Assembly (NCBI GenBank): GCA_965204115.1
Contig: OZ241963.1
Span: forward strand, 306,489-370,488
Length of the DNA stretch: 64,000 nucleotides
Direction: 5' to 3'
Source of the DNA: Minisyncoccota bacterium
Lineage (GTDB): Bacteria; Patescibacteriota; Minisyncoccia; Phycocordibacterales; JABAAK01
Part shown: positions 9,979 through 41,514 of the stretch, in pieces
Numbering within the stretch: the first letter of the stretch is position 1
How the letters are laid out: the number at the start of each line of letters is the position of its first letter
Translations under genes and position numbers: made by a program
Notes under the pieces: model-generated
Databases searched by the model: none
What the model saw: the letters and a program-made list of their open reading frames with translations, nothing else
Told to the model about the DNA's origin: nothing

Positions 9979-11658
9979 TCATATCACTACACCGATAACC
10001 CGCTCAATTTCTTCCAAAGAGGTGATGCCTTTCAGCACCTTCCAGAGTGCGTCATCCTCCATAAACGGAAGCCCCTGTTTCCGCACTTCTGCGCGCAGTG
10101 TGGCAACCCCGCTCTCTTCCCGAATCACCCGCTCTATCTCATCGTTCACCTCAAACACCTCAAACACACCGATTCGCTTTTTGTATCCGTCGTTGCATTC
10201 CTGGCACTGTGGTGATGCTTCGCTTGGTCTTTTGATAGCATTTAAATCAAACTCCTCTTTATACCGCTCCGGAAATCGTTCTATCATCTGTTGTATTTTT
10301 TCTTTTTGCTCGTTCGTTAGCGGATGCTGTTCTGAGCAGACGGGGCACAGCTGCCGCACCAGTCGCTGTGCGATGACGATATTAATCGCTCGTGAAAATG
10401 CCTGCGGATCCACCTCAAACTGCAATAGTCGCGGCAGCGCGCCGAGCGCGTCGTTTGTGTGCAGGGTTGAAAATACTAAGTGTCCTGTCAATGCCGCCTG
10501 TACCGCCACCTGCGCGACTTCGGCATCACGAACCTCACCGACCAGAATAACATCCGGATCCTGCCTGAGGATGGCCCGTAGCCCTGAAGCGAACGAGTAG
10601 TCCTTATCAATTTCCGTCTGCACAATCCCCTCAAGCCGATACTCAATCGGGTCTTCCAGCGTTACGGTCTTGATATGCTCCCCTTTTACCTCGTTTAAAA
10701 ATGAGTACAGTGTCGTTGTCTTCCCCGACCCGGTCGGCCCTGTGTTCAAAATCATTCCATTCGGTCGTTTAATATGTTTCATAAATACCTCAAGTACCAC
10801 CGGATGAATTCCCAGACGCTCAATGCTATGCAGCACATTTCTCGGATCAAGGAGTCGTATGACGAATGAGCCGCCCTCGTCCTCCGGTATCACAGATGAC
10901 CGCATGCTTAATGTTCTTTTCGGAAGGTGTACCACGAAACCACCGTCCTGTGCCCCCCTTGCGGTTATTTTCATACCGGAGACCAGCTTCATCCGCGTCA
11001 CCATTTGTTTGTACTCCAGTTCATTGAGTTCGGTCATGTCGGTCAGCACTCCGTCTATGCGATACCGTATCACACCGCCCTCCTGTGCCGGCTCAATGTG
11101 TATATCAGACGCGTTTACTGCAACTGCCGTTGCCACGACATACTCTATATTTTTTGACACCCGATGCGCTCGGCTCATTTTTTTGAGCTCACGCAGCACC
11201 TCTCGCACCGCTTCAACTGATTGGATGCTTTGTATTTTTTCTTCCAGTTCTTCATTCGTGATAGACAGTGTTCCCGGCGCAGTCGCGCTTGTGGTGATGA
11301 TGTCCTTGTAGTACATCCATATTTGCTTCAGTGTTTTGGTTGATGCGAGGGTTATGGTGTGCGAGTACCCTTTTTCTTCCAACATGCGGAGTATTTCCGC
11401 CAGTTTTTCATTATTCGGCTCATTCACCGCTACCGTCAGCACCCCCTTCAGCCGCTTATACACCGCCATCTTCCCCTCCCGCGCATCAACTTCTTTCACC
11501 AATTGCAGTGCGTCAGGATTCACCTGCACATCAGTGATGCGAATTGCGGGATATTGATACTTCTTAGAAAGGTAATCCATTAACCGCTCCTCTTCCTCTT
11601 CTCGGTGCTCCCGCAAATCTTTTTGAAATTCCTGCACTGGTGCATTAACGACAGTCAT
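9979..11658 (-). CDS. pilB: type IV pilus assembly ATPase PilB/GspE family
   Basis: A T2SSE N-terminal domain, Walker A NTGPTGSGKTTTLYS, the Asp/His boxes, and a C-terminal tetracysteine CPVC...CQEC. The longest ORF runs to 11745; the likely start is MTVVNA at 11658, with TATACT -10 7 nt upstream. Confidence 0.9.
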   Translation of the reverse strand: MTVVNAPVQEFQKDLREHREEEEERLMDYLSKKYQYPAIRITDVQVNPDALQLVKEVDAREGKMAVYKRLKGVLTVAVNEPNNEKLAEILRMLEEKGYSHTITLASTKTLKQIWMYYKDIITTSATAPGTLSITNEELEEKIQSIQSVEAVREVLRELKKMSRAHRVSKNIEYVVATAVAVNASDIHIEPAQEGGVIRYRIDGVLTDMTELNELEYKQMVTRMKLVSGMKITARGAQDGGFVVHLPKRTLSMRSSVIPEDEGGSFVIRLLDPRNVLHSIERLGIHPVVLEVFMKHIKRPNGMILNTGPTGSGKTTTLYSFLNEVKGEHIKTVTLEDPIEYRLEGIVQTEIDKDYSFASGLRAILRQDPDVILVGEVRDAEVAQVAVQAALTGHLVFSTLHTNDALGALPRLLQFEVDPQAFSRAINIVIAQRLVRQLCPVCSEQHPLTNEQKEKIQQMIERFPERYKEEFDLNAIKRPSEASPQCQECNDGYKKRIGVFEVFEVNDEIERVIREESGVATLRAEVRKQGLPFMEDDALWKVLKGITSLEEIERVIGVVI

Positions 11659-11726
11659 TGCTGTCAGTATAGCATACACGCCCGTGAGGGTAACAAAGTA
11701 CAATACCGTTTGCGGCGATGAGCGGT

Positions 11727-13052
11727 CTACAGCCGAAGCATCCAAAGTGCCATATCATACTTGTTCACAAAAAAGAGGAATTCTCCATCCGGGGTGAGCT
11801 GCGGGTGTATGACATCAAAGTTCGTGTTTCTGGAAAGTATTTGAATTTCTTCCTGATTAGGTGCGAGTAACAGATCCTTTTCTCCGGTTGCGGCGTTCAC
11901 TGACACGATTACATCGTCAAAGGTGATGTCCCCCTGATACCATGAATCGGGAAATACTGTGTCATAGCCGGAAACTGTTTCAATGGGGATGGATATCGGC
12001 GCGGCACAGACAAATATGCCGTTCGCCGCATCGCACTTCTCAGGTAGTGTGATCGGGAGATCAATGGTAATACTCCGATCCCGATTGGTGATAACTGCTT
12101 TTCCGGCAAAATTATCCGCCTTTGTTTCAAACAGCATAAAATATCCCGTTGTTGCGTCCATAAACGCAGACCCGCCGGATGCGAGAGATACAAACTGTTC
12201 ATTCGGCAGCACTCCCTTCGGGTCAACGAGGTAGATGAATCCCTTCATCATGTCGGTAATCGGTGTGTGGAGGGTGATACGCGGACTGTTGCCCCAGCGT
12301 GGCAACCATGAGGCGAAATCTGACCGCCATATTACCTGTGTTTTTGATGGATTTGCCACATCAACAACAACCCCGACGGATTTGCCGTCAATCATCTGCA
12401 GAAAAAAGAGGAGGTTTTTATTATTCGTAGCAACCCGAATATTATCCTCAAACCGCTGCACGCTCGGACCGGTGCCGGTTGTAGAAAATGGTACAAACGC
12501 TGATCGCACCACGGATTCATTATCGGCACTTTCATACAGCACCAGCACTTCACCGTTCTCAAACGGATACCCTTCAATAACCCGAGTAAATTCACCGCGC
12601 GCGGTCAGTGACAGTGAGTATGGGATGGTCTGTACCAGGTATCGATTCCCCCGCCCCTGCTCAATGACCTGTGCCTCCCATGCGTCTCCTTTTTTTTCAA
12701 TGCGATACCCCGCCGTCGGGCCTTTGAACAGCCGCACTAATCGCGGTATGTTTTCTTTGTCTTCAGTACCAGGGTCACTGGTATCAGATAGCGGAGCTGT
12801 GTATACCCGATCATCCCGCCCCTTTCCGTCACTATCATCGGAAACTGAAGGATTAAAAGGTATTTCATCCGGTCTTGACACCCCAAGATTGTCCAGACCA
12901 AGCGATGGCGCTGTCGGTGCCGGTGGCCCATCGGGTGGTGGCGCGGGTGCCGGCGGCTCTGCTGAAAGATATAGGTAGATACCCGCAAACAGCAGCGCAC
13001 AAAATACCAGAAAAATAATAATGGCGATGGTGAACCGTTTTGTAGGGGTCAT
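11727..13052 (-). CDS. hypothetical membrane-anchored secreted protein with Pro-rich linker and a beta-rich C-terminal domain
   Basis: Likely start is MTPTKRF at 13052 (TATACT -10 8 nt upstream). It has a signal-anchor (IAIIIFLVFCALLFAGIYLYL), a PAPAPPPDGPPAPTAP linker and a C-terminal domain. Confidence 0.5.
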   Translation of the reverse strand: MTPTKRFTIAIIIFLVFCALLFAGIYLYLSAEPPAPAPPPDGPPAPTAPSLGLDNLGVSRPDEIPFNPSVSDDSDGKGRDDRVYTAPLSDTSDPGTEDKENIPRLVRLFKGPTAGYRIEKKGDAWEAQVIEQGRGNRYLVQTIPYSLSLTARGEFTRVIEGYPFENGEVLVLYESADNESVVRSAFVPFSTTGTGPSVQRFEDNIRVATNNKNLLFFLQMIDGKSVGVVVDVANPSKTQVIWRSDFASWLPRWGNSPRITLHTPITDMMKGFIYLVDPKGVLPNEQFVSLASGGSAFMDATTGYFMLFETKADNFAGKAVITNRDRSITIDLPITLPEKCDAANGIFVCAAPISIPIETVSGYDTVFPDSWYQGDITFDDVIVSVNAATGEKDLLLAPNQEEIQILSRNTNFDVIHPQLTPDGEFLFFVNKYDMALWMLRL

Positions 13053-13303
13053 ATATAGGTAGTATACTCCACTAGAGAATGTCTTTGCCATTCCTTATTG
13101 GTCTCTTGGATAACACCACTCCTCCAGTTCATCCTCGTTAATTGCTGGTGTGATGCAAAAAGCAGGCAAGGGGCCTTTTTCAAAGTACAGCACCGCTTCA
13201 GTGCCGGTATTAGTGTTCATCCAGTTAGTTCTTGTTGTTGTGCTATCAAGCGTTTTTCTTGTTTCGTGTTTAGAATCCACGCTGCCCCTGGTGATAGTGA
13301 GCC

Positions 13304-15409
13304 TTAATGGCTTCTTGGCTGTAGACTCGACTGGATGGGTACCCCAGCCGGTACAGATGTACCCTGTTTCACTTCATCGCGTGCTGAACCTCTGGTATTT
13401 TCATCGGGGCAGCCTATGACTGGCGGTGCAACGCTAGAAAGTTTTCCGCTATTCTCGTTTCCCTCTCGCAACACCAGGAAACACGCTGTTTCTCCTCTGA
13501 GCGGTTCTTTACATTGGCCAGTCTTTTTACCCTTCTCATTCACCAGCACCAGCATGGGGGTTATTCGAAAAATATCGTTGTGGTTGACTTCCCCAATTTT
13601 GACAACCCAGGGACCCGCTGTGCTGTCCGTTATTTTGAATGTAACCTTTTTGCCATTACCTGTTGAACTATACACTCCTTTACTGGTTGTGCAATCAGAT
13701 GAATCTTTTTTCGTACAATATTGGACCTTTCCACTGTCAATATGGTAGCCGGTTACAATTCCTTCAACACTGCTGAAGATGCGACCGGGGTTTTGAATGG
13801 CTGGAAAATCGATGGTAATAAATTCACCGTTCTGATTGCGAGTAATCCCTTGAGCAACAGTTATATTGCCGCTGAGTTTTACTTTTTCTTTTCCTAAGGT
13901 AATGCAGTCATCAGCATCAAATTTAGGCTTATGCCTCCATGGCTTCCCGCGCCAAAATTTTACCACCTTCCCTGGATCCTTTTCATCTTTCTTCACCACA
14001 ATAGATACGATAGGAAAGACAGCGATAATGTCTGAATTTTTTATTGTCGCCTTTATCTTTGTCTGTGGTTCGCTTGTGCACTTCCTGACGCCGACCAAAC
14101 TATCACCTCCTTCCGACTGGTCTCTGATCTTGTCAAATGCCCTATCCTCTCCTTCCTCGGACACCTTTACCTCTCCGCCAAAATCTGAATATAAAATCTG
14201 ATAATGGTACTGTAGCGGGACAGTGGTGGAATAGGGTCCCTGCTGCAGTGACTGCCTCACACTTTCTACTTGCCCTTTGAAATTATCTTCAATATCAGGG
14301 CATGCACTTATGGTTAGGAGTCCTGTCTCTTTATCGTAGTTGACGGCCTTATCCGGGACGGAAAGATTGGCTGTAACCAGGTTGTTACCTTGCCCGACTT
14401 CCCGCAGCTGGGTGATTGTTTTGAATAGTTGCGGACGGAGGAGTGAAGGGTCAATAAAGTCAAGGATAATCCATGAGAGGAGCAGGATGATGGTGCCGAT
14501 GGCGGCTGCCACCACTCTCTTTTTTGCATCGGAGAAACCCGAGACATTTCCGGTGAACTCGGCGTAGATCATTTGGGTGCCGTGTACGGCAAGCATTACT
14601 ACCATCAAAATTCCGGAAACGGTGAAAATGACACGGAAGAACCGGGTGAAAAATTTTTGAATTAAGCCGCTTACCGCTTCCTGATTGGCATCAGTTGTAT
14701 TAATTCTTTCTGCGCCCCAAATACTGCTGTAGAGATTGAGTATTGTCGGGCTTCCTTTTGTGATGCTCTTACTTGTGGTTGTTGACGCTGTTTCATCATC
14801 GTCGTCGCTGTCATCTCCATTGGCGGATTGAGCGTTTGTAGCAAGGCCATTATGTATGTCTTGTGTAATATCTCTTGTTATGAATTGTATATTTTTACTT
14901 CCCGCCGCTTCTTTGTATCCGACATAGACACAGAGCGTGTGTATTTTTTCCTCAGGATTGTTAATGCTATAAGGAGCAAAAAGGTTGCTTGTTGGTGTTA
15001 TAGATATTGTTGCTGCTGCAGGGTTAAATGCTTCAAAAAGTATGTTGTCAAAAAAATCTGGGTCATTGTTCTCTTCTTCTATTCTTACAAATTCCTCCTT
15101 ATACGCCTCAGCACCCTTTAGGACGAGGCCGTCATCACCGCATTCAACATCAGAACTCCCCGCTACAAATCCATAGCCCCAGTAGTATGTATATGTCAAA
15201 TCATCCTGAGAAACGAGGCTGCGAAGATCAGAAAACCGTGTATTTACTACATATTCATACGTACCTGGATCTTCTCGTTTTTCTCCTGCGGATATAAAAG
15301 TAGGGCGACCCAGATTCGCCTGTGCAAACAACACGCCGCCCATTAATCCGCAGATACTACAGACGAAAAGTAAACTGAATATCAGATTGTTGTAAATCTT
15401 TGTTTTCAT
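13304..15409 (-). CDS. large envelope protein with a signal peptide, Asp-rich segment and a central two-helix membrane hairpin (TrbC/VirB2-like topology)
   Basis: Likely start is MKTKIYNNLIFSLLFVCSICGLMGGVLFAQA at 15409. The hairpin is FFRVIFTVSGILMVVMLAVHGTQMIYA-loop(GFSDAKKRVVAAA)-IGTIILLLSWIILDFI, followed by a ~390-aa C-terminal domain. Confidence 0.5.
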   Translation of the reverse strand: MKTKIYNNLIFSLLFVCSICGLMGGVLFAQANLGRPTFISAGEKREDPGTYEYVVNTRFSDLRSLVSQDDLTYTYYWGYGFVAGSSDVECGDDGLVLKGAEAYKEEFVRIEEENNDPDFFDNILFEAFNPAAATISITPTSNLFAPYSINNPEEKIHTLCVYVGYKEAAGSKNIQFITRDITQDIHNGLATNAQSANGDDSDDDDETASTTTSKSITKGSPTILNLYSSIWGAERINTTDANQEAVSGLIQKFFTRFFRVIFTVSGILMVVMLAVHGTQMIYAEFTGNVSGFSDAKKRVVAAAIGTIILLLSWIILDFIDPSLLRPQLFKTITQLREVGQGNNLVTANLSVPDKAVNYDKETGLLTISACPDIEDNFKGQVESVRQSLQQGPYSTTVPLQYHYQILYSDFGGEVKVSEEGEDRAFDKIRDQSEGGDSLVGVRKCTSEPQTKIKATIKNSDIIAVFPIVSIVVKKDEKDPGKVVKFWRGKPWRHKPKFDADDCITLGKEKVKLSGNITVAQGITRNQNGEFITIDFPAIQNPGRIFSSVEGIVTGYHIDSGKVQYCTKKDSSDCTTSKGVYSSTGNGKKVTFKITDSTAGPWVVKIGEVNHNDIFRITPMLVLVNEKGKKTGQCKEPLRGETACFLVLREGNENSGKLSSVAPPVIGCPDENTRGSARDEVKQGTSVPAGVPIQSSLQPRSH

Positions 15410-16358
15410 TTTGAGCAAATACACGAACAGGTATCTCGGCACCTTCCCCGCGGACAGAAATATCAAGCTTTCTGCCCTCCTTGAGGTGGCTTGCCTCGTT
15501 GTTCACAAACCATTTATATTGTATCGCATTTTTTTCAAAATCGGACTGACTGAAGTAAAACGGGTACACCGAAGCCGTCACTTCCTCGCTGCCGGGCGAA
15601 AGATATTCAGAAAAAACCCGATCCCGCGAGAGTCCGTATAGGAGTGTGTGAGGATACACCAGCAGCCGCGGCTCAACAATAGGCACATTGGTTACTTTTT
15701 CAAAAGAGACCCTGCCACTGCTGATGAGCGTTGCCTCTACCCGCACGATAATATAGCGGTTGAGGTAGCTCCCTCCTTTTTCATACACTACGCTGCTTGC
15801 CGCCGGACCACGCTCGTCGTGGTAGCGCGATTCAATCATCCAGCGGAATGAAAAATCTTTTTCGGTGTAAATAATACCGCTCTGATCAATATACTGCACC
15901 TTTGCTGAAAGCTTTATCGGTGTCTGTGGTCCCGCTAGCCGGTGCCCTCGATACAGCGGCGTGACAACCGAGTCCGCCTCCCAGAGAATATCAAAAACAA
16001 CCGGTCGTATCCATCGGGAAATATTGGCAAATCGCCGCTGCCCCTGTGAATCAAAGTACTGTATCCGCGCAACAACCTGTTTCGGCACGCTACCGGCAAT
16101 TTCAGTAATCTTCGTCTTGTTTGTATATGCCGCCTGTTCAATACCGTCAATCTGCCAGATAATTGAATGGATACTGGAGACAAACGACTGGTTAGAGCGA
16201 ATGGTGAAATCAACATACTCGCCCGGCGACGGGTAGGGTTCACTCACCGATATCTCATACGCGCTGTAGCTCCCCTGCTCTTGCCCGAATACTATGGGAG
16301 TCAGTAAAAAACCCGCTAACAAAACAGCATAGAGCCAAAAAAGAAATGCAATCCGCAT
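15357..16358 (-). CDS. hypothetical secreted protein
   Basis: 333 aa with an N-terminal signal peptide (MRIAFLFWLYAVLLAGFLLTPIVFGQ). TATACT -10 lies 8 nt upstream (16367-16374). Confidence 0.5.
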   Translation of the reverse strand: MRIAFLFWLYAVLLAGFLLTPIVFGQEQGSYSAYEISVSEPYPSPGEYVDFTIRSNQSFVSSIHSIIWQIDGIEQAAYTNKTKITEIAGSVPKQVVARIQYFDSQGQRRFANISRWIRPVVFDILWEADSVVTPLYRGHRLAGPQTPIKLSAKVQYIDQSGIIYTEKDFSFRWMIESRYHDERGPAASSVVYEKGGSYLNRYIIVRVEATLISSGRVSFEKVTNVPIVEPRLLVYPHTLLYGLSRDRVFSEYLSPGSEEVTASVYPFYFSQSDFEKNAIQYKWFVNNEASHLKEGRKLDISVRGEGAEIPVRVFAQNENKDLQQSDIQFTFRL

Positions 16359-16391: not shown

Positions 16392-17132
16392 CTACAGGAA
16401 TTTTTGCAAAAACTCCGGTGGTCCCACTGCGCTGAAGAATGACAGATCGCCGACGAGGAAAAATATACCGAGCGCGATGAAGAGTAGCCCGCCGATGACG
16501 CGCATGGTCGGTAGGAATTTTGGTATCTCCTGCAGCCGTTCCGCTGCTTTGGTGTAGAGCAGTGCGAGGATGGTGAGCGGCAGCATAATGCCGAGTGCAA
16601 ACGCGAACAGTAGGAGCATTCCGGTGAGCGCTGATCCGGAACTTGCCGCCAAGGTCAACACTCCGCCAAGCACCGGACCGATACATGGCGACCACCCTGC
16701 CGCGAATATCGCGCCGATGAGGAAAATGCCCCACCATGAGTGCACCGGCAGCATTTTCGGTATCGGAAATGATTTATTACCAAGCAATCTTTCCGGCAGC
16801 GGCACTGCGCGCAGTAACACTAATCCGACCATGATAAAGAAAATTGCGCCGATAATCACCAGTATTGGTTTTGCTTGATTAAACAGTGCCACGGTTCTGC
16901 TAAACTGCCCGAACAAGCCGGCAACACCGCCGAATAAGGCGTATGTTGTCGCAAATCCGGAAAAAAACCAGCTCGTTGTTGTGAGGGTGTACGGAATGTT
17001 GTTGCTGTCCTCGTCGCCGATGATGAGTGCGATATATCCCAGCACCATCGGATAAGTACACGGCAGAAAGACGGTGATAATCCCCGCCAATATAGTTACG
17101 GAAAAACTTATAATGGACAGCTGTTCTATCAT
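16392..17132 (-). CDS. ccdA: cytochrome c-type biogenesis / thiol-disulfide transfer membrane protein CcdA (DsbD family)
   Basis: Six TM helices with the two conserved Cys motifs FLPCTYP and WSPCIGPVLG. Confidence 0.85.
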   Translation of the reverse strand: MIEQLSIISFSVTILAGIITVFLPCTYPMVLGYIALIIGDEDSNNIPYTLTTTSWFFSGFATTYALFGGVAGLFGQFSRTVALFNQAKPILVIIGAIFFIMVGLVLLRAVPLPERLLGNKSFPIPKMLPVHSWWGIFLIGAIFAAGWSPCIGPVLGGVLTLAASSGSALTGMLLLFAFALGIMLPLTILALLYTKAAERLQEIPKFLPTMRVIGGLLFIALGIFFLVGDLSFFSAVGPPEFLQKFL

Positions 17133-17842
17133 TGTACTTCTTGCAGGAGGCCCCGCACCTGCTCCAATGGCAATGCGCCCGGTATGGAGCGCACCGCTTT
17201 GGTCTTTTTGTTGACCAGGAATGATCCCGGTGTGCCGTTGACCCCCATTTTCTGTGCATCGTTCATATGCTGCTCCACGAGCTGCTGCTGCTTACTGCCT
17301 GCCGCAACACATGCGTCTATTTGCGCATCAGAGAGGCCGTTTTCTCGTCCCAGTGCTTTATAGGTTTCAAGACTTAGTGCGGTTGCGGTGAATACGCCGT
17401 CTGTGTATGTCCAGAATGCGTCGTTCCCCTTGTGGGTCTTCACACATTCACCAATGGCAGCGCCGTCTTTTGCGGTCACATGAAATGGCAGCGGTAGGTG
17501 CCGGTACACCCACATAACTTCCCCACTGTCCACCAACGCCTGCACCGTCGGGTGGAATCGCTTACAAAATCCACATTCATAATCAGAGTACTCAACCAGT
17601 AGTACATCCCCGCTTCCGCGTGTTGCATCGTTATTTCGTACGGTCAGTATGTTAAGGTCCGGCGTGATCGGTGGCGGTCCCGGCGGCACTTCTCCCGCCG
17701 GCGGGTTGCCCTGTGGCTGTACCGCCACAGTTCCGCTTTTTCCGTGTATCATTCCGGCATAGAAAATTGCCGCTATGGCAATGAGGACCGCAAGTGCGGT
17801 GATCATGTTGTTTGTTTGATTACTGTTTTTTTCTGTACTCAT
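17129..17842 (-). CDS. membrane-anchored DsbA-like thioredoxin-fold thiol:disulfide oxidoreductase (CXXC = CGFC)
   Basis: A TM anchor and a DsbA/COG1651-like core (VLLVEYSDYECGFCKRFHP). It overlaps the ccdA start by 4 nt, which suggests an operon. Confidence 0.8.
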   Translation of the reverse strand: MSTEKNSNQTNNMITALAVLIAIAAIFYAGMIHGKSGTVAVQPQGNPPAGEVPPGPPPITPDLNILTVRNNDATRGSGDVLLVEYSDYECGFCKRFHPTVQALVDSGEVMWVYRHLPLPFHVTAKDGAAIGECVKTHKGNDAFWTYTDGVFTATALSLETYKALGRENGLSDAQIDACVAAGSKQQQLVEQHMNDAQKMGVNGTPGSFLVNKKTKAVRSIPGALPLEQVRGLLQEVQ

Positions 17843-17907
17843 AGTGTTTTATTGTTTTTTGTAATTATTAAACTGATTATGGTTATAGCATACCATACTT
17901 TACTTCA

Positions 17908-18615
17908 TTATGGTTTTGCTTTTTCTACCAACACCTTTACCCGCTGCAAAAACTTGCTGTATTCATTCGCGTACGAGATGCCAATCGGTCGGTCTTTATA
18001 TACTACCACAATATACGGTGTTCCGCGGGAACCCAGCCGCCATCCCTCGTTACTGTCCCGCTCTACCCGACTCCGCACCCGCTTATCCGTTGAGATACAT
18101 TCCTGAAATTGCCGCGCGTCTGTCCCCAATGCCGCTGCCTTATTCGCCAGTGCTTTTGCATCGTTGATATCTCGCTGATTTTCATACACATACTGAATAA
18201 ACGAGAAGAATGCTTCCTCGCCGGTATGTTTCGCCACACACTCGGCGGCAACCGCCGCTTCAAATGCGGCGCCTTTTTTCTGCGGATATAGGTGCCGCGA
18301 CACCACCAGCACCCCCTCTTCGTCGACGATCTTTTTAAAGCTCTCCCGCATTGCCGCGCACATAATACAGCTTAAATCTGAATACTCAATCAGCACCACT
18401 TCCGCGTCAATATCACCCTGGGTGTGGTCAATAGACCGCACATCGGTCATGCCGATTACGGTGTGCTGTGAGTCAACCACCCCGATACCTGCTGCAATAT
18501 GTTTCAGGACCCGCACCATCGGATGTTCCACATACAACAGTACCCCCGCTACCATCACCACCGCCACACACACCACCACTATCCGCCGTACATTCATTTG
18601 TCGCACATTCTGCAT
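17908..18615 (-). CDS. second membrane-anchored DsbA-like thiol:disulfide oxidoreductase (CXXC = CIMC)
   Basis: VVLIEYSDLSCIMCAAM motif. Likely start is MQNVRQ at 18615, with TATACT -10 8 nt upstream at 18624-18629. Confidence 0.7.
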   Translation of the reverse strand: MQNVRQMNVRRIVVVCVAVVMVAGVLLYVEHPMVRVLKHIAAGIGVVDSQHTVIGMTDVRSIDHTQGDIDAEVVLIEYSDLSCIMCAAMRESFKKIVDEEGVLVVSRHLYPQKKGAAFEAAVAAECVAKHTGEEAFFSFIQYVYENQRDINDAKALANKAAALGTDARQFQECISTDKRVRSRVERDSNEGWRLGSRGTPYIVVVYKDRPIGISYANEYSKFLQRVKVLVEKAKP

Positions 18616-18798
18616 ATGCTTACAGTATATCGCTATCTGGGAGCTCTGTACTTGGTATCTGCCACAGCCACCGCACGACAAGGGATGATGATTGAGGAGA
18701 TATGAGGCAGATACTACGGCTTTTTAATAGAGGGCAATTTGAGCTGCTGAATACCCTGTAAAATGGTAAAAACCTTGATTTTACTGCCTTTCTTGGGG

Positions 18799-20068: not shown

Positions 20069-21184
20069 CTACCCCTCCAATGCCCGTAGAGCAGCGCCGA
20101 CGGCGACGGAGAATTCTGATCCGCTTTCTTTGAGGGTTTCGCTGAGGAGGGCAGGATGCCGCAGCCGTGAAAAAGGGTTTGCTATCTCAACACTGTTTTT
20201 TGTTTTTGCCTTCACCTCTTCCAGAAGTCCTTTCATAGATGCGCCGCCGCCGGTGAGTACAATCTTAGAGATGGATTGACGGTATCGCTGCTCAAAATCA
20301 ACAATCGCGTTGTTTGCTTCCGTGAAAATCTCATCAATAACTAATGACATCGCATGGCGGACTTCCTTGTCCTCTATGGTAAAGCCGAATTCCCGCTTTT
20401 TGTGTTCTGCCTCTTTGAATGATATGTCTTCCGCGCGCGCTATTGCCTGCGATATATTCTGCCCTCCTTGGTTTACGAAAAATGATCGAAGAATAATGCC
20501 GTGTTCAACGACATATAGTTTTGTGGATCGCGCCCCTATGTCGATGATGATGACCGGAAGCCCGCCATCATACACCGAGGAACGAAGTGTGCTGAATATC
20601 TCAATTTCAAAGTATTGGGTGTTTAGGGCAGTTTTCCCCAGAATGTTTTTATGTTTGATAAGTTCGTGGTTGTGAATGGCGATGAGGAGCACTTTTCGTT
20701 TTTCACTCTGTGCGATAGGTGCAATGTCATCCTCAAAAATAGGCGCGTCATCCCGTCTCAAGAGTGCCTGTGGCACTACAAACCAGTCCAGCGATACATC
20801 TTCCAATGGTACCGGGATGTATCGCTTTGCCTCAAAAGGAATGGTTTGCGCTATTTTCTCATCGGAGAGTGCCGGCACTTCAATGAGTGATATCAAGCTG
20901 GAGTGAAATGGTATGGAAACACACGCCAGCGATGCGGTTATCTTTGCTTCTTGCAGCAGCGCCGCTAATACCGTGTGCAGCACTTCTTCACCGGCGTTTG
21001 CGTGCTGTCCAATCTCAGTATCCTCCACATAGGGTCCGATTGCCAATGATCCGTAGGTCTCTAAGACGGCAACCCCTTTTTCCTGCCGCACTTGTACCAC
21101 TTTCACTGCGGATGACCCGATGTCTATCCCGACAACACTGTGCTTGCCCCTCTTTAAAAACGAAAAAACTCGTGGTATTGGCAT
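20069..21184 (-). CDS. pilM: type IV pilus assembly protein PilM (actin-like ATPase)
   Basis: VGIDIGSSAVKVVQV phosphate-1 motif, IIDIGARSTKLYVV and LTGGGA motifs; 371 aa. Confidence 0.85.
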   Translation of the reverse strand: MPIPRVFSFLKRGKHSVVGIDIGSSAVKVVQVRQEKGVAVLETYGSLAIGPYVEDTEIGQHANAGEEVLHTVLAALLQEAKITASLACVSIPFHSSLISLIEVPALSDEKIAQTIPFEAKRYIPVPLEDVSLDWFVVPQALLRRDDAPIFEDDIAPIAQSEKRKVLLIAIHNHELIKHKNILGKTALNTQYFEIEIFSTLRSSVYDGGLPVIIIDIGARSTKLYVVEHGIILRSFFVNQGGQNISQAIARAEDISFKEAEHKKREFGFTIEDKEVRHAMSLVIDEIFTEANNAIVDFEQRYRQSISKIVLTGGGASMKGLLEEVKAKTKNSVEIANPFSRLRHPALLSETLKESGSEFSVAVGAALRALEG

Positions 21185-33651: not shown

Positions 33652-36600
33652 TTAATTATTGCTGTAAACAGAAAAATGATCATCGTAATTGCCAAGGAGC
33701 GCATTACTCTCCATTCCTGGTATGCCTTTGATGTGGTCTACAACATCGCTATTTCTTGTTTCGAACACGGCTCGTAACCCGGCATTGCCGGCTTCTTCAA
33801 TGAATGTTTTTACCTTCCTTTTGAATGCTTCTTTTTCGGTGTCTGTAAGATTCTTATAGATGACGGGGCTTCCATTTTTTCTAAAAGCAATGTCAACGCA
33901 GGTGCCGGTATAGTGACAGTTGTTGCTATGTGGTCGTGTCGGCGGCCATGCTTCAGTTACTATCCATGTAAAATCTTCAATATTTTTTTTGAGACTGCTT
34001 TGTAATTTTCCTGCGAAACCGCTAACTACTTTATTGCTCTCAGCCTCTTTGAGCAAACCTGATGGGAGGTCGTTGCAGTTATTACAACTACAGTTCAGGC
34101 CTGATTTTCTTCTACTTCTCCGTCTTAGATGCCCTTCACATACTGCAATCTCTGCATCTTGTTCGCCCTCTTGTGGTCCTGCGTTGCCGCCCCTGTTATC
34201 ATCAGCCGGTGATTGACCGGAGGTTCTTCCTGGTGCCGGCTCCATATCATCCACAGGAGGCAGTTCTGCTTCGTTCCACTGGAACGGATTGCCCAAGTTG
34301 TAGCCGATGATATTAAATCCTGCGTTGACGATGAGGTAGGCACTGAGGATGAATATCAGCCCGAAGAGTATCGCTCTGAGTGCGTCCTTCACTTTCTTTC
34401 GCGCTTCCTGATCGCCTCCTTTTACGAACACATTAATTGCTAATACTGCCCCTCGGTAGAAAATGAGTATTCCCGCGCCGGTGATTGCAAGCCATAGCAG
34501 GAGTTTCATTATATTATTCGCTAATTCAAATAGGTGCTCTATACCACAATCATTTCCTTCCCCAAAACTGCAATTTACGATGAGGTTTGACTCTTCTACC
34601 TGATCATTACTGGTAATACTCACGGAATAACTACTGCTGGCAGTGGGGCTTCTACCGCTAACTGAACAGGTAATTGAGCCGGACGACTCAGGTGTGTCGT
34701 CATCAGTGGTTTTCATGGTAAAAGAGCCGGTGGTGTCCCTTTGGGTGGAGAATGAGAGCGGCGTAGCACCCCACGCGCCTCTTTCTTTGCAAGAGACCGT
34801 GAAACCCTCTTCTGTCGCATCTTGCCGCCGAGTAATAGTCCACTTAATACTTTCTCCCTCGGAAATACGAGCGTTATCTGCCTCTATGGTAAAAGGAGGC
34901 GGATTGGCGGGAGATGATAAGCGTGGATCGGGTGGTGCGTTGCCGCCATCATCACCGTTCCCGTTGTCGCCATTACCATTGCCGCCATTGCCACTGTCTG
35001 TCGTTGTTGTCGTAGAATCTACAGTACCGTCTTCATTAACGGTGGTACGATGTGTTTGTTCAATCTCATTTGAGAAATCGTCAGTTGTTCTCACAACAAC
35101 TTCCAGATTGGTTTCTCGGTCCGGGTCTACGGCATTAGGGATGGTTATACTCCAAGCGCCAGTTTCCGAATCAGCAGTAACAATGCTGAGATCTTCACTC
35201 AACGGTATGGTGGCTTCATTGCTTGTTACGGAAACAGCGGCAACCGTTGAGCCGGGTTCCGCCGTGCCGGATATGGTGGCCGACGGGGCGGCAGGGGCTC
35301 CTCCGACAGAAAATCTGATACCTCTGTTATAGGTGGTGTCTATGGTCACATAGTACTCCGCCTTCTCATAGTCAGTATTAGTATCATCTTTTCTGGAGGC
35401 GAAACAGAAAGTGTATCCGTTATCAGTCGCCGCACCAAGAGTGACCGGAGAGCCTTCTGTGTAGGTATTTTCCAATCTATCCCATACATAAATATCGGAA
35501 CCGCAAGGTTGATTTTTATATATTTTCTGCATCCGCCACGAAGTCTCTCCACGAGGATAATTATCAGTTGCGCGGAAAGTTATTGATTGTACACGACTCC
35601 CACGATTATTTTCCATCCCTGCAGGATTTGTCTCTTTATCAAAAGTTATGACAACCGGTCTATCGTCTAAAGCCCCTCCTTCTTGACGGTCACCCCAAAA
35701 GCAAATTGCCGTACTCCCTCCATACCCGCGGCATTGATATGAATTACTTGTGCCACGGGGAGGTGACTGCGCACAACGACAGCCACCAGGCGCACACTTA
35801 CCATTGAATACACTTCCTGCGCTACAGCCCTCACAAGTTCCGGAATTATTTCCACCGTTCTTTCCCTCACAATACCACGCGGCAAAAGTTCCTAAGTTTT
35901 GCCGGCAAAAACAAGCCCATGTAGCGGATGCGGTTGATGCGCTTATTTCAGTGCCGGCGACACACCTTGTTTGAAATGTGCCGCATTTGCCATCCACTAC
36001 ATTTTTTACTGTAACTGTTATTGTTCCACTTTTTCCTTGTGGGTCCTCATTGCATTGATCGTGAATGGGATTTCCACCCTCTCTCGGAGTGTCAGTGATC
36101 TCCCCGGTACAGAAATACGCTGAAAAATTTATAGTATATATATCTTCATCTTTTGTGTCTTCCGCAACCTCAGGAGCATTTGTTATTCTGATCATCTTAT
36201 CATTGGCTCCCTCCCGGGATTCATAGGTAATCCCTTCTGGGGCTTCTATCTCTATCCGCTTCATATATGCCCCTTCCTTGTTTGCGCCGGTAAAACAACT
36301 TTCATAAATATCCAACCAGGCACTTTCTTCCTGAAGTTCTTTCACTTCAAGCTCACAATCACCTGATCTATATTCCACGCTTCCCTCATACTCATTCTTA
36401 AAGATCATCCCTAACAATGTTTCACCATCGTTGCTGCTTTTGTTGTTAGGGTCACACGATAAATCATTGTCAATTTGTTCCGGTGTCTTTTCCCACCAAT
36501 CAATTTTCACAAAATCAGGCAAATCCCGCTTAAGTGTTTTGTTGATCTTGTCATTTTTAGGGTTTTGATAAAATATCCTGTATATTGCAAATTTTCCAAC

Positions 36601-36936
36601 ACCTGCAGGGTCATCCAAACCGCCGCCGTCTCTGTCTTTGACATGCTCCACCGTAAACCAATTGTTCTCAAGATTTTGATTTGGCTGTACCTCAGAGCAG
36701 TCAATACTATTAAATGGGATTTCAATTATTTTATTATTAATTTGAGATTCGCCGTTGACCGACTCAAAGTTCTTTTCAAAGGACCACTCACTTGTTGTGG
36801 TAAATACCTCGGGCCATGTCTCAGGACGAATTATTACCCCTTGTTTACCTTGCCCATACAGATTTACGGAAAAAAGGAATAAGAGGGATGGGACGATGAT
36901 AAAAACACCCAAAAGTGTCAATATATATATGCGCAT
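33652..36936 (-). CDS. giant (~1094 aa) secreted cysteine-rich surface protein with a C-terminal two-helix membrane hairpin and a putative LAS/M15-like peptidase domain
   Basis: Likely start is MRIYILTLLGVFIIVPSLLF (ATG 36934-36936, TATACT -10 9 nt upstream). It has a Cys-rich module, a GNGGNGNGDNGNG low-complexity stretch, the hairpin LLLWLAITGAGILIFYRGAVLAINVF-KGGDQEARKKVKDALRA-ILFGLIFILSAYLIVNAGF, and a C-terminal domain with HYTGTCVD (HxxGxxxD) and later DH motifs. Confidence 0.6.
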   Translation of the reverse strand: MRIYILTLLGVFIIVPSLLFLFSVNLYGQGKQGVIIRPETWPEVFTTTSEWSFEKNFESVNGESQINNKIIEIPFNSIDCSEVQPNQNLENNWFTVEHVKDRDGGGLDDPAGVGKFAIYRIFYQNPKNDKINKTLKRDLPDFVKIDWWEKTPEQIDNDLSCDPNNKSSNDGETLLGMIFKNEYEGSVEYRSGDCELEVKELQEESAWLDIYESCFTGANKEGAYMKRIEIEAPEGITYESREGANDKMIRITNAPEVAEDTKDEDIYTINFSAYFCTGEITDTPREGGNPIHDQCNEDPQGKSGTITVTVKNVVDGKCGTFQTRCVAGTEISASTASATWACFCRQNLGTFAAWYCEGKNGGNNSGTCEGCSAGSVFNGKCAPGGCRCAQSPPRGTSNSYQCRGYGGSTAICFWGDRQEGGALDDRPVVITFDKETNPAGMENNRGSRVQSITFRATDNYPRGETSWRMQKIYKNQPCGSDIYVWDRLENTYTEGSPVTLGAATDNGYTFCFASRKDDTNTDYEKAEYYVTIDTTYNRGIRFSVGGAPAAPSATISGTAEPGSTVAAVSVTSNEATIPLSEDLSIVTADSETGAWSITIPNAVDPDRETNLEVVVRTTDDFSNEIEQTHRTTVNEDGTVDSTTTTTDSGNGGNGNGDNGNGDDGGNAPPDPRLSSPANPPPFTIEADNARISEGESIKWTITRRQDATEEGFTVSCKERGAWGATPLSFSTQRDTTGSFTMKTTDDDTPESSGSITCSVSGRSPTASSSYSVSITSNDQVEESNLIVNCSFGEGNDCGIEHLFELANNIMKLLLWLAITGAGILIFYRGAVLAINVFVKGGDQEARKKVKDALRAILFGLIFILSAYLIVNAGFNIIGYNLGNPFQWNEAELPPVDDMEPAPGRTSGQSPADDNRGGNAGPQEGEQDAEIAVCEGHLRRRSRRKSGLNCSCNNCNDLPSGLLKEAESNKVVSGFAGKLQSSLKKNIEDFTWIVTEAWPPTRPHSNNCHYTGTCVDIAFRKNGSPVIYKNLTDTEKEAFKRKVKTFIEEAGNAGLRAVFETRNSDVVDHIKGIPGMESNALLGNYDDHFSVYSNN

Positions 36937-37002
36937 ACTATTGTCAGTATACTGCACGAAACATACTTGTAGTGCCTATGCGGCTGTGCTATCATATATC
37001 CT

Positions 37003-39435: not shown

Positions 39436-41514
39436 CTATGGTGTGGACGGCTTGCTTTCCCAGAATTCTACCCCGTGCAGACGCACTAAATCTAAGCCCG
39501 CCGCCGGTCCGGTTGTTGCCGGAAGGTGGTATCGTTCTACATAATCTTCGTCGCCGCATATGGTAGTTAGTTCGTTACCGCTGTACTGTTTCTTTGCAGA
39601 GGTTGTCGGCTCCAATAGATATATTTCATCAATATAACCATTGATGAGTGAGGTTCCGATTGCAGCCACGATTTCTTTGGTCGGGTGTTTTTCAGAAAGG
39701 TGTTTAAAGGTAACCTGCCTGCCATCCTCTATGACTGCGTCGCAAAGTATTCGCCGCTCGCTCGTTTCTCCGGTATTCTTGTGTACCGATATCGCCGTTG
39801 CAGTGTCGCCCTGTTGGACGCCGCTGAAGTACACCAACTGCCCTTCTTTGTTGATGGCAATAGGGAAATTTCTGAAATGCAGGTGGTCAGTGAGTGGTGA
39901 GGTGCCGGCTGTTGGGATGGTGGTTGGCGTGGTGTCAGTTATGCTGTCAATGACACAGAGGTCGGTACCGTCATCACATATTGAGGTGTACTTGTTCAGT
40001 CCGTTACCGTATGCGAAGATGCCGCCGCGGGCAACTGTGTCACTTCGTTTCAGCTTTGATGCTCCTTGACCGATTGACACTAAGTGTCTGCCGGTAGCAT
40101 CTTGATACCAGAGTGAGACCGTGTTATTGATAACCTGCAGCGCATCAAGAAATCTGAACAGTACCGGGCGGGTAATATCGCTCGGCGTTATGCTTATGCC
40201 ATTTTCCTTATCCGGATCAGGGTGCAGCTGTCGGCAACGATTACTTTGTGTATTGCTTGGCATATACCTAAATTCACTACATCCGCCAATAATATCAACT
40301 AAAGAGATGGAGGAACCCGCGCTGAATAGGCGAGCGGTTCTGGTTCCGGCTTTATCTCTATAGAACAGCAGTATCTGATCGTCGTCTGTCGCTATATTTC
40401 GTATTGTCTCCTTATTGGTACCGCCCGTTACGATACGATCAGCGCGAGCATCGTCAACCCTGTGCAGCGCACCGTTGTACGATCGTGTGTACAGATACCC
40501 GCCGGCAGGATGGATGGACACCACGCCTTGCGGATCATTTGCGCAAAAGCGGCAAGTTGAATATCCATCCTCACCTAACACTCGGACAACGGCATTTTGT
40601 ATATCAAGTGATTTTTTTTCTACCGGATTCCTGCTGCCAACCATGCCGGTTGCGGCCAGTGCGTCATCTATTACTGCTTCCGGAATGTGGAAGACCAGTC
40701 CGTTGTCTCCCAGTATGTACAGTCCGTCGCTGGTGAATTCAGCTGCGACTATTCCGGCACTTTCTTCACAAAAACTGTCTAAGAAAACGTTCCCCACTCT
40801 ATCCCGACACACGATGTCGGCTTCTTTTGGATTATTGGTTGGTGTCTCCCCATCCTTCTTGAGGTATTCTGCTCTTCCTGATTCATCTACTCTCGGGCCA
40901 TAGGCGAAATTGTATATGACGGCAGCGTTTTCATTTTCGGAAGTTGCGACAAAGGTGTTTAACACATTCTGGCTCGGGTCAAGTATGCGGCTGGTAATTT
41001 GTGTTTTGAATGAAACATTTTCCGTATTGTCGGCAACAGTGTACTCCGCATCAATCCGTGCCTGCACCCTAGGTTGCTTTGCCGCGTCATTTTCCAGTTC
41101 AAATGAAAGATTTGTTACTGAAACAGCGTTGTCGGTAAACGGCACCCATTTATCAGAGGTGCCGCACACCTTCGGATTCGGATCAAACAGTTTCGTTGCC
41201 CGTTTCACCTGCTTGTTCGCACTGTCGTACCATATTTTTACCTGCTTACCCAGCTGGTCTCTAAAGGTCAAACACTGACATACATTATTCACTGTTTGTC
41301 CGCACGCATAATCATGGCCGAAATAGGTTTCTCGTGACAATTCAGCAAACAAAAACCGAACAGTTTCTAACGCCACCCGCTCATCCTGTGCCCGTACCTG
41401 ATTCCCAATAAATACGGTAAAAAAACTCAGGAGGGCTGTTATTACAATACTCGCCAACCCGATAGCAACAATCAACTCAATAAGTGTAAAACCCTTTGTG
41501 GAAGAAGACCTCAT
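39436..41514 (-). CDS. large type IV pilin-like protein (prepilin N-terminus plus ~650-aa extracellular domain)
   Basis: MRSSSTKGFTLIELIVAIGLASIVITALLSF is a class III signal with a G|FTLIE prepilin peptidase site and a conserved Glu5. Confidence 0.7.
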   Translation of the reverse strand: MRSSSTKGFTLIELIVAIGLASIVITALLSFFTVFIGNQVRAQDERVALETVRFLFAELSRETYFGHDYACGQTVNNVCQCLTFRDQLGKQVKIWYDSANKQVKRATKLFDPNPKVCGTSDKWVPFTDNAVSVTNLSFELENDAAKQPRVQARIDAEYTVADNTENVSFKTQITSRILDPSQNVLNTFVATSENENAAVIYNFAYGPRVDESGRAEYLKKDGETPTNNPKEADIVCRDRVGNVFLDSFCEESAGIVAAEFTSDGLYILGDNGLVFHIPEAVIDDALAATGMVGSRNPVEKKSLDIQNAVVRVLGEDGYSTCRFCANDPQGVVSIHPAGGYLYTRSYNGALHRVDDARADRIVTGGTNKETIRNIATDDDQILLFYRDKAGTRTARLFSAGSSISLVDIIGGCSEFRYMPSNTQSNRCRQLHPDPDKENGISITPSDITRPVLFRFLDALQVINNTVSLWYQDATGRHLVSIGQGASKLKRSDTVARGGIFAYGNGLNKYTSICDDGTDLCVIDSITDTTPTTIPTAGTSPLTDHLHFRNFPIAINKEGQLVYFSGVQQGDTATAISVHKNTGETSERRILCDAVIEDGRQVTFKHLSEKHPTKEIVAAIGTSLINGYIDEIYLLEPTTSAKKQYSGNELTTICGDEDYVERYHLPATTGPAAGLDLVRLHGVEFWESKPSTP

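Follow-up and report, generated by a model that had tools for sequence, protein, structure and literature searches.

The question raised by this locus is what kind of domain closes a giant surface protein and what it could do there. The protein is encoded in a 64,000-nt stretch of DNA from an ultrasmall Minisyncoccota bacterium (assembly GCA_965204115.1, contig OZ241963.1, positions 306,489 to 370,488; hereafter the window), in which the interval 33652-34200 covers the 3′ end of the minus-strand open reading frame (ORF) 33652..36957. An earlier note on this DNA had pointed out an HxxGxxxD signature behind a hairpin near the C-terminus and had read it as the zinc site of an M15- or LAS-type peptidase (LAS, lysostaphin / D-Ala-D-Ala peptidase / Sonic hedgehog). 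In this study, assignment of amino acids (aa) 953-1101 to a divergent domain of the LAS superfamily is supported because a sequence profile, two structural models and residue conservation agree, each score alone being modest. On these profiles and models, the domain is a previously unannotated branch, apparently restricted to the Candidate Phyla Radiation (CPR), whose nearest relatives are the Hedgehog signalling domain and cell-wall peptidases. The reading that we favour, at a probability of roughly 0.6, is that the protein acts as an extracytoplasmic zinc peptidase, tethered by a VirB2-like hairpin, which would cut peptidoglycan peptides and so open the wall locally for a type IV secretion system (T4SS) or pilus.

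The three sequence strings on which the zinc-peptidase proposal had been built, RPHSNNCHYTGTCVDIAF, VVDHIKG and YDDHFSVY, were all found in the last 170 aa, and the codons of the key residues were confirmed. On the raw sequence, D1022 corresponds to gtc (33892-33894), H1015 to gtg (33913-33915), H1094 to atg (33676-33678) and the stop codon to tta (33652-33654). A C-terminal domain of about 150 aa carrying the H1015-x6-D1022 pair and H1094 is therefore present as described. Residue numbers are those of the 1101-aa protein counted from the GTG at 36957; the numbering of the earlier note, for a 1094-aa protein, is 7 lower. This GTG is probably not the true start. Residue 1 of the syntenic Kaiserbacteria orthologue (P0100, locus L028) aligns to window position 36936, the site of an ATG, so the protein probably begins there (MRIYILTLL...) and is 1094 aa long, leaving a divergent intergenic region of 66 bp between the giant gene and the L19 gene. 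From its N-terminus, the protein comprises a signal anchor, a variable, Cys-containing ectodomain of about 790 aa, a pilin hairpin, a linker and the LAS domain (Table 1). No recognisable Pfam domain was found in the N-terminal region, a Reeler match staying below threshold, and its 789 aa have no sequence relative in the PDB. The exact sequence of the window protein is not on record.

The HxxGxxxD motif by itself is weak evidence. Chance alone would give 0.055 occurrences in this protein, and four were seen in the 25.5 k residues of the long window ORFs, one of them in GyrB. One chance occurrence (HYSGDIKD, aa 91) lies in a 1398-aa ORF at 58584-62780 (minus strand) that has no Pfam match at E ≤ 1e-4. 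It is conservation across homologues that raises the motif above chance. A word-index search with the single sequence returned one homologue only, P0001 (284 aa), in which a signal peptide and a pilin hairpin precede the tail seen in the window protein, and an exhaustive profile search was therefore needed. With the two-sequence profile, 702 cluster representatives (50% identity) were recovered at E ≤ 1e-3, including 326 at E ≤ 1e-10. The family hidden Markov model (HMM) matches aa 953-1101 of the window protein with 115.5 bits (959-1106 in the stop-to-stop ORF, which begins 6 residues upstream of the GTG). Most members are about 300 aa long and carry the domain at the extreme C-terminus, a few reaching 1000-1300 aa like the window protein. 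The named sources all belong to the Patescibacteria/CPR (Zambryskibacteria, Paceibacterota, Kaiserbacteria, Wolfebacteria, Moranbacteria and metagenome-assembled genomes [MAGs] labelled Saccharibacteria), with two third-party annotation (TPA) MAG labels being doubtful. Every source record names the member "hypothetical", and all databases consulted label the family either "hypothetical" or merely "T4SS_pilin".

Residue conservation was computed over 108 full-length homologous domains. C958, C961, E1002 and D1022 are conserved in 100% of them, H1010, E1066, H1094 and S1096 in 99%, C1014, C1020 and Y1098 in 97%, F1095 in 96% and H1015 in 94%; P1005, P1006 and G1018 follow at 92-94% (G1018 at 92%). 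The full set E1002, H1010, C1014, H1015, C1020, D1022, E1066, H1094, S1096 and Y1098 is found in 100 of the 108. Conservation of the candidate ligands had been named beforehand as a decisive check, and the H-x6-D pair and the His of YDDHFSVY pass it. Of the two downstream histidines offered earlier as possible further ligands, H1094 thus stands, whereas H1075 of VVDHIKG is not conserved, the commonest residue at its position being Ala (21%).

The fold was approached by profile and by structure. When a 61-sequence profile (A2) was compared with all PDB sequences, 23 of the 25 matches were Hedgehog N-terminal domains (best E 1.6e-4), among them Sonic, Indian and Desert hedgehog and Drosophila Hh; the other two were weak (E 0.83 and 1.4). 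The family motif W-x-V-T-E-A-W-P-P-T-x-x-H-x-N-x-C-H-x-x-G-T-C-V-D-A-N-F aligned with Sonic hedgehog (Shh), and hhalign against the N-domain of human Shh gave a probability of 77% and an E of 2e-5. In a relaxed alignment (-mact 0.05), the family V-[YF]-E1066 pairs with V-Y-Y-E177 of Shh. Two template-free AlphaFold2 models were obtained, one of the window domain (mean predicted local distance difference test [pLDDT] 87.6, predicted template-modelling score [pTM] 0.84) and, after re-ordering of the alignment, one of the P0001 domain (pLDDT 91.8). Both show the order strand-strand-helix-strand-(helix)-strand, with the last strand at E146-151 and E140-145, respectively, and the strand-strand-helix-strand-strand order agrees with the DD-peptidase fold described previously (PMC6027127). 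As predicted, the domain is a central antiparallel β-sheet backed by helices with the putative zinc site on the sheet, as a LAS fold demands. In Foldseek searches of the PDB, the first 24 matches of the window-domain model and the first 46 of the P0001-domain model were all LAS-fold proteins. Hedgehog N-domains reached probabilities up to 1.00 (E 2e-3 to 4e-3, template-modelling [TM] score about 0.43-0.46) and MepA a query-normalised TM-score of 0.53-0.58 in both searches, the other top proteins being VanY, VanXYc/g, Ply500, ChiX, LysB4, the RB49 L-Ala-D-Glu peptidase and LysECD7. A structure search of BFVD gave weak, scattered peptidase and endolysin matches only.

Of the original M15/LAS reading, the LAS fold is therefore borne out by profile and structure, whereas VanY/M15 membership is not. 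The window domain has no match to Pfam VanY or Peptidase_M15_x models at E ≤ 10, and VanY/M15 models are not among the 25 most frequent of the 34 families matched by the 61 members at E ≤ 1. The closest relatives are Hedgehog- and MepA-type LAS proteins and not VanY or Ply500, the two named for comparison in the earlier note. Nor is the domain a conventional Hedgehog domain: the Pfam model HH_signal (PF01085) is touched by 3 of the 61 members, all below threshold (best E 8e-4), and the window domain has no PF01085 match at E ≤ 10. Lacking an HH_signal match above threshold, the Ca2+-binding Asp residues, the Ser and Ala of the M15 motif, a conserved acidic residue at -3 from the last His and an M15 model match, the family forms a new, divergent LAS branch that is a member of neither M15 nor HH_signal. 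That the motif is a coincidence in a non-LAS domain, such as a Cys-rich structural module or a haloacid dehalogenase (HAD)-like fragment, can be given hardly any credence. HxxGxxxD alone is common, and the single-sequence PDB search had returned a weak dehalogenase match at E 0.02; with the family profile this match vanishes and Hedgehog domains appear instead, two models show a LAS fold, and the ligands are conserved. The 2-haloacid dehalogenase, the sole PDB match of that search, was accordingly rejected as spurious.

By alignment to Shh, with features as listed in PMC6027127, the equivalents of Shh H135, H141, D148, E177 and H183 would be H1010, H1015, D1022, E1066 and H1094. H1015 and D1022, which align to H141...D148, are proposed as the first two zinc ligands. 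The equivalence of H1094 to H183 was judged by eye and by strand order, without a significant alignment. The positions 2 and 3 residues before H1094 are variable in the family (D/G/A/P and Y/T/I); a conserved Glu, E1066, lies instead on the preceding strand, as in Hedgehog.

Cysteines form a second conserved element of the domain. C940 together with C956, C958 and C961 may form a four-Cys set, either as disulfides or as a Cys4 site, and additional Cys residues in this N-terminal knob are strictly paired across the family, with 0 or 2 downstream and never 1. C1014 and C1020, which flank H1015 in the core motif, are lost together in 3 of 3 cases and are probably disulfide-bonded. They were also considered as extra metal ligands; given this joint loss and the DsbA/DsbD genes, a disulfide is likelier. 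Since the window encodes a DsbD-type protein and two DsbA-like proteins, extracytoplasmic disulfides are plausible, which fits the many paired Cys of the surface proteins.

The hairpin ahead of the domain, noticed earlier from the sequence, is genuine and can now be named: it matches the T4SS_pilin family of Pfam (PF18895) at aa 809-878 with 27.4 bits, just over the gathering cut-off of 26.6, and is a VirB2-like pilin module made of two transmembrane helices joined by a Lys/Arg-rich, strongly basic loop (KGGDQEARKKVKDALR). When the window hairpin was used as the seed of an iterative jackhmmer search, a hairpin was recovered upstream of the domain in 190 of 207 domain-bearing proteins, the other 17 being mostly truncated fragments. 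Across the family, the linker has a median length of 39 aa and the domain invariably forms the C-terminus. Conservation along the giant protein is far higher in the hairpin than elsewhere (59-94% identity to orthologues, compared with 32-46% for the LAS domain, 31-39% for the linker and 23-41% for the ectodomain), implying strong constraints such as packing or docking interactions. The pilin identity of the hairpin and the fusion of the domain behind it in every complete member shift the likely role of the protein towards type IV secretion or pilus biology. By the signal anchor, the positive-inside rule and the VirB2 topology, both the N-terminal region of about 790 aa and the C-terminal tail would lie outside the membrane.

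We propose that the two-helix hairpin would tether the domain to the outer face of the cytoplasmic membrane, with its basic loop facing the cytoplasm and with both ectodomain and peptidase extracytoplasmic. H1015, D1022 and H1094 would there hold Zn2+, E1066 would serve as general base with assistance from H1010 (counterparts of Shh E177 and H135), and a C1014-C1020 disulfide would brace the metal-binding loop. The enzyme would cleave a peptide bond in peptidoglycan stems or cross-links. Its target would most likely be the cell's own wall, possibly the host wall at a contact site, and the local opening would admit the Patescibacterial type IV secretion or pilus apparatus, making the protein a functional substitute for the usually missing VirB1. 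The window also encodes PBP1 and MurJ, indicating that the organism makes peptidoglycan.

The gene context of relatives bears on this proposal. Related loci were found with a degenerate DNA pattern for TEAWPPTxxHxxxCHxxGTC. In at least nine loci, all with short members, the order is PrgI - TraC-like - VirB4 - x146 - x338 - [pilin-peptidase] - x433. Other members stand alone among housekeeping genes outside T4SS clusters; across the window and L002-L004, these neighbours include ribosomal proteins, miaA, parB and relA. In four CPR loci (L013, L015, L021 and L022), the pilin-peptidase was matched twice by tblastn, at sites a few hundred bases from each other, which suggests tandem paralogues reminiscent of the VirB2 arrays of Patescibacteria.

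Several points weigh against the wall-opening peptidase. Searched as a single sequence, the 182-aa tail brought up no family from Pfam, NCBIfam or the PDB, and none of the statistics is strong by itself (E 1.6e-4 for the PDB profile, 77% for hhalign, no Foldseek E ≤ 1e-3). The significant alignment to Shh ends before E1066 and H1094, hhalign failing to reach H1094-F-S-V-Y because of the insertion of about 25 residues before it, so that the equivalence of these two residues to Shh is drawn from the relaxed alignment, strand order and an H-[FC]-S-V resemblance. The H-x-H dyad near the third ligand, or the E/D-x-x-H of M15, is absent or variable, and H1015 is replaced by Gln in 5 of the 108 members. 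As to context, the giant gene of the window is not in a T4SS cluster and adjoins the ribosomal-protein (spc) operon, and no VirB4 is present within the 64 kb. To our knowledge, moreover, Hedgehog has no established peptidase substrate.

Some of these points would suit a catalytically silent Hedgehog-like binding module, acting as an adhesin or assembly factor, in which the zinc site is structural or ligand-binding, a role for which a case has been made in Hedgehog. We consider this improbable. The nearest relatives by profile and fold are Hedgehog N-domains, for which peptidase activity is contested (PMC6027127); the family has no HxH/ExxH dyad, and some members carry H1015Q or lack all catalytic residues. 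Yet the putative base E1066, H1010 and the three ligands are near-invariant in 108 diverse sequences, as expected of an active enzyme, and degenerate members are rare (8 of 108) and conspicuous against the intact rest. In P0063, H1010, H1015, E1066 and H1094 are all replaced together, a joint loss that would be expected if these residues form one site and that resembles a decayed active site. Three further members (P0072, P0111 and P0120) combine H1015Q with loss of both C1014 and C1020. All four may be pseudo-enzymes.

A stronger competitor, which we nevertheless regard as unlikely, keeps the enzyme and changes its target. The hairpin would polymerise, or the protein would be displayed on a pilus or at a contact site, and host peptidoglycan would be digested during episymbiotic attachment or feeding; in the giant form, the large, variable, adhesin-like ectodomain would be displayed along with the peptidase. 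Both termini of a VirB2-type pilin lie outside the filament (textbook knowledge), so a C-terminal fusion would be surface-displayed. Ectodomain and LAS domain evolve fast (23-46% identity, as against 52-92% for neighbouring genes), which is typical of host-facing proteins, the family is apparently restricted to Patescibacteria, whose cultivated members are epibionts (PMC12102498), and many members are stand-alone genes outside T4SS clusters. Against this, these hairpins are not known to polymerise, and a VirB2 filament with an extra 150 aa (let alone a further 790 aa) on each subunit would be unusual on steric grounds; the placement of the short form within the VirB4 cluster fits a role in machine assembly equally well. 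Rather more speculative is the broader idea of a VirB2-type filament or platform whose pilin subunit itself carries a Hedgehog-like zinc peptidase. Such an active pilus or contact organelle would cut the cell's own or the host's peptidoglycan, replace VirB1 and belong to an essential T4SS-dependent epibiotic lifestyle, and the family would be a deep, abundant bacterial branch of the Hedgehog/DD-peptidases.

The neighbourhood of the giant gene itself is one of housekeeping functions. In the segment 32258-37575, the gene lies between the divergent L19 gene (37003..37575, plus strand) and S14/S8/L6/L18/S5/L15/SecY. The window shares with a Candidatus Kaiserbacteria MAG (GCA_001753035.1; L028) the gene order ComM, type IV pilin-like protein, Dus, divergent L19, giant gene, S8, L6, L18, S5, L15, SecY and GyrB, and in another genome (L027) the giant gene lies between L5 and S8. 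A promoter and terminator scan around the gene gave nothing above shuffled expectation; no terminator-like site was seen between the giant gene and S14, suggesting co-transcription with the ribosomal genes. The neighbouring genes are 52-92% identical to their orthologues, whereas the giant protein is about 40% identical; P0003 is 49% identical over aa 220-1101.

This setting would also suit a housekeeping carboxypeptidase or endopeptidase for maturation of the cell's own peptidoglycan or for division, the hairpin being a mere anchor with no link to type IV secretion, an explanation that we hold to be very improbable. The gene stands among housekeeping genes both here and in L002-L004, its placement in or beside a ribosomal operon suggests constitutive high expression, and only one copy is detectable in the window, the family HMM finding no second LAS domain in the 64 kb. 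If the hairpin were a plain anchor, however, there would be no need for it to be the most conserved segment or to match T4SS_pilin specifically, and at least nine loci place the gene between conserved genes of the VirB4 cluster.

The window holds a second pilin gene (Table 1), which encodes a 720-aa T4SS_pilin protein and is flanked by homologues of x338 and x433. Components of a type IV pilus are also encoded, namely PilM (20069-21184, minus strand) and a 692-aa protein (39436-41514, minus strand) whose N-terminus bears a methylation (prepilin) motif and which is conserved at the corresponding place in the Kaiserbacteria MAG.

Table 1. Positions in the window of the giant gene, its segments and proposed active-site residues, and of the second pilin gene with its neighbours.
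Feature	Position	Strand	Basis or remark
Whole gene	33652..36957	-	ORF list; 1101 aa counted from GTG at 36957
N-terminal signal anchor (MRIYILTLLGVFIIVPSLLFLF...) and large variable region, predicted extracytoplasmic	34573..36936	-	Most of the protein's 30 Cys
VirB2/TrbC-like T4SS pilin hairpin, aa 809-878	34324..34533	-	PF18895, E 3.5e-6
Low-complexity Pro/Gly/Asp/Glu/Arg-rich linker, aa 879-952, includes C940	34102..34323	-	Translation
C-terminal LAS-fold (Hedgehog/DD-peptidase-like) domain, aa 953-1101	33655..34101	-	Family HMM, AlphaFold2 model, Foldseek, PDB profile
C956-x-C958-x-x-C961 cluster at domain start	34075..34092	-	C958, C961 invariant
Core motif VTE1002-AWPPTRP-H1010-SNN-C1014-H1015-YTG-T-C1020-V-D1022	33892..33954	-	94-100% conserved; aligns to Shh
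E1066 (AVFE-T), proposed general base, equivalent to Shh E177	33760..33762	-	99% conserved
H1094 (D-H-F-S-V-Y), proposed third Zn ligand, last β-strand	33676..33678	-	99% conserved; compare Shh H183-C-S-V-K
Second T4SS_pilin protein, 720 aa, hairpin aa 272-338, C-terminal region of ~380 aa without LAS domain	13304..15466	-	
x338 homologue, flanks second pilin gene	15357..16358	-	
x433 homologue, flanks second pilin gene	11727..13091	-	
PilB-like T2SSE ATPase, after x433 homologue	9979..11745		
DsbD/CcdA-type membrane protein with two DsbA-like proteins of thioredoxin fold, immediately upstream of the pilin cluster	16392-18681	-	

Southlakia epibionticum, the sole Patescibacterium tested genetically, cannot do without its type IV secretion genes and VirB2-like pilin arrays. 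A phylum-wide survey found that most genomes with VirB2-like pilins lack a VirB1-type hydrolase, leaving open what opens the wall (PMC12102498). Given this gap, a peptidase built into a pilin-like protein of the VirB4 cluster is a natural and testable candidate for the missing activity, and the family may explain how these bacteria open a cell wall without a recognisable VirB1 enzyme; alternatively, it is a candidate for an activity that attacks the host wall. In either case, a large, previously unrecognised bacterial branch that has kept the predicted catalytic residues and lost the Ca2+ sites would be added to the Hedgehog/DD-peptidase superfamily and, if this branch is truly deep, it would bear on the origin of the animal Hedgehog ligand domain. 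The domain merits a profile model of its own, with which thousands of CPR "pilins" could be correctly annotated. LAS metallopeptidases and T4SS-associated wall hydrolases are already known, and the enzymology is expected rather than surprising. What is new is a CPR-wide family for which no model exists, obligately fused to a pilin hairpin and closest to Hedgehog without its Ca2+ sites; a literature search of limited coverage found no description of a peptidase-fused VirB2-like pilin or of a Hedgehog-like domain in Patescibacteria.

Among known systems, the Hedgehog N-domain (PF01085) and the bacterial Hh/DD-peptidases of MEROPS M15A (bacHh; Roelink 2018, PMC6027127) are the best match to the family by profile and fold. 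Hedgehog and the family share a common core of V-T-E-x-W...H...H-x-x-G-x-x-x-D, a helix, V-[YF]-E and H-x-S-V on the last strand, and in bacHh the domain is likewise C-terminal and extracytoplasmic in a membrane-anchored protein. The differences are considerable. The family is about 17-20% identical to Hedgehog and falls below the Pfam gathering score. Of the Ca2+ residues of Hedgehog and bacHh (Shh E90, E91, D96, E127, D130 and D132), it keeps, in the alignment to Shh, only the equivalent of E127, E1002; P1005 and T1007, themselves conserved in the family, stand in for D130 and D132. The counterparts of H135 and H141 are one residue closer together, H-x-H lacks its first His, and about 25 residues are inserted between the strand with the Glu and the strand with the last His. 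In addition, the family has the N-terminal four-Cys knob, the C1014-C1020 pair and the T4SS pilin hairpin, and it is apparently restricted to Patescibacteria.

MepA (MEROPS M74; PDB 1U10/1TZP) gave the highest query-normalised TM-scores in both Foldseek searches. It has a LAS-type zinc site on an antiparallel sheet and is a periplasmic peptidoglycan peptidase. It is also larger (about 250 aa) and soluble, shows 13-15% identity, and has no detectable sequence-profile relationship to the family. The M15 peptidases, which cleave cell-wall peptides, are represented in both Foldseek lists by VanY/VanX/VanXY, Ply500, T5/RB49, LysB4 and ChiX, and they share with the family the H-x-x-G-x-x-x-D spacing, a third His near the C-terminus and the fold class. 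The SxHxxGxAxD motif of M15, to which the window sequence had been likened, is present here in its H, G and D; the Ser position is taken by Asn (N1013, variable in the family) and the Ala position by Cys (C1020, Cys in 97%). The family also lacks a conserved Glu/Asp three residues ahead of the last His, and Foldseek probabilities and E values for M15 are weaker than those for Hedgehog.

The VirB1-type hydrolases (VirB1, TraG-pIP501, PrgK, TcpG and CD419/TrsG) have the role that we propose here, local wall opening for type IV secretion, but have unrelated folds (lytic transglycosylase, CHAP or NlpC/P60 in place of a LAS metallopeptidase), and no Pfam match to any of these three domain types was found in the window protein. 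They occur as separate proteins or are held by one transmembrane helix, whereas the family is fused to a pilin. Any VirB1 role would thus be one by analogy and not by membership. Finally, VirB2/TrbC pilins and the VirB2-like arrays of Patescibacteria (PF18895, PF04956; PMC12102498) are linked to the family by the window hairpin, which matches PF18895 above threshold. Canonical pilins are about 70-120 aa long and have no enzymatic domain, whereas the window hairpin carries a C-terminal domain of about 150 aa and some 790 aa on its N-terminal side. Members of the family have presumably been counted as "VirB2-like pilins" in published surveys.

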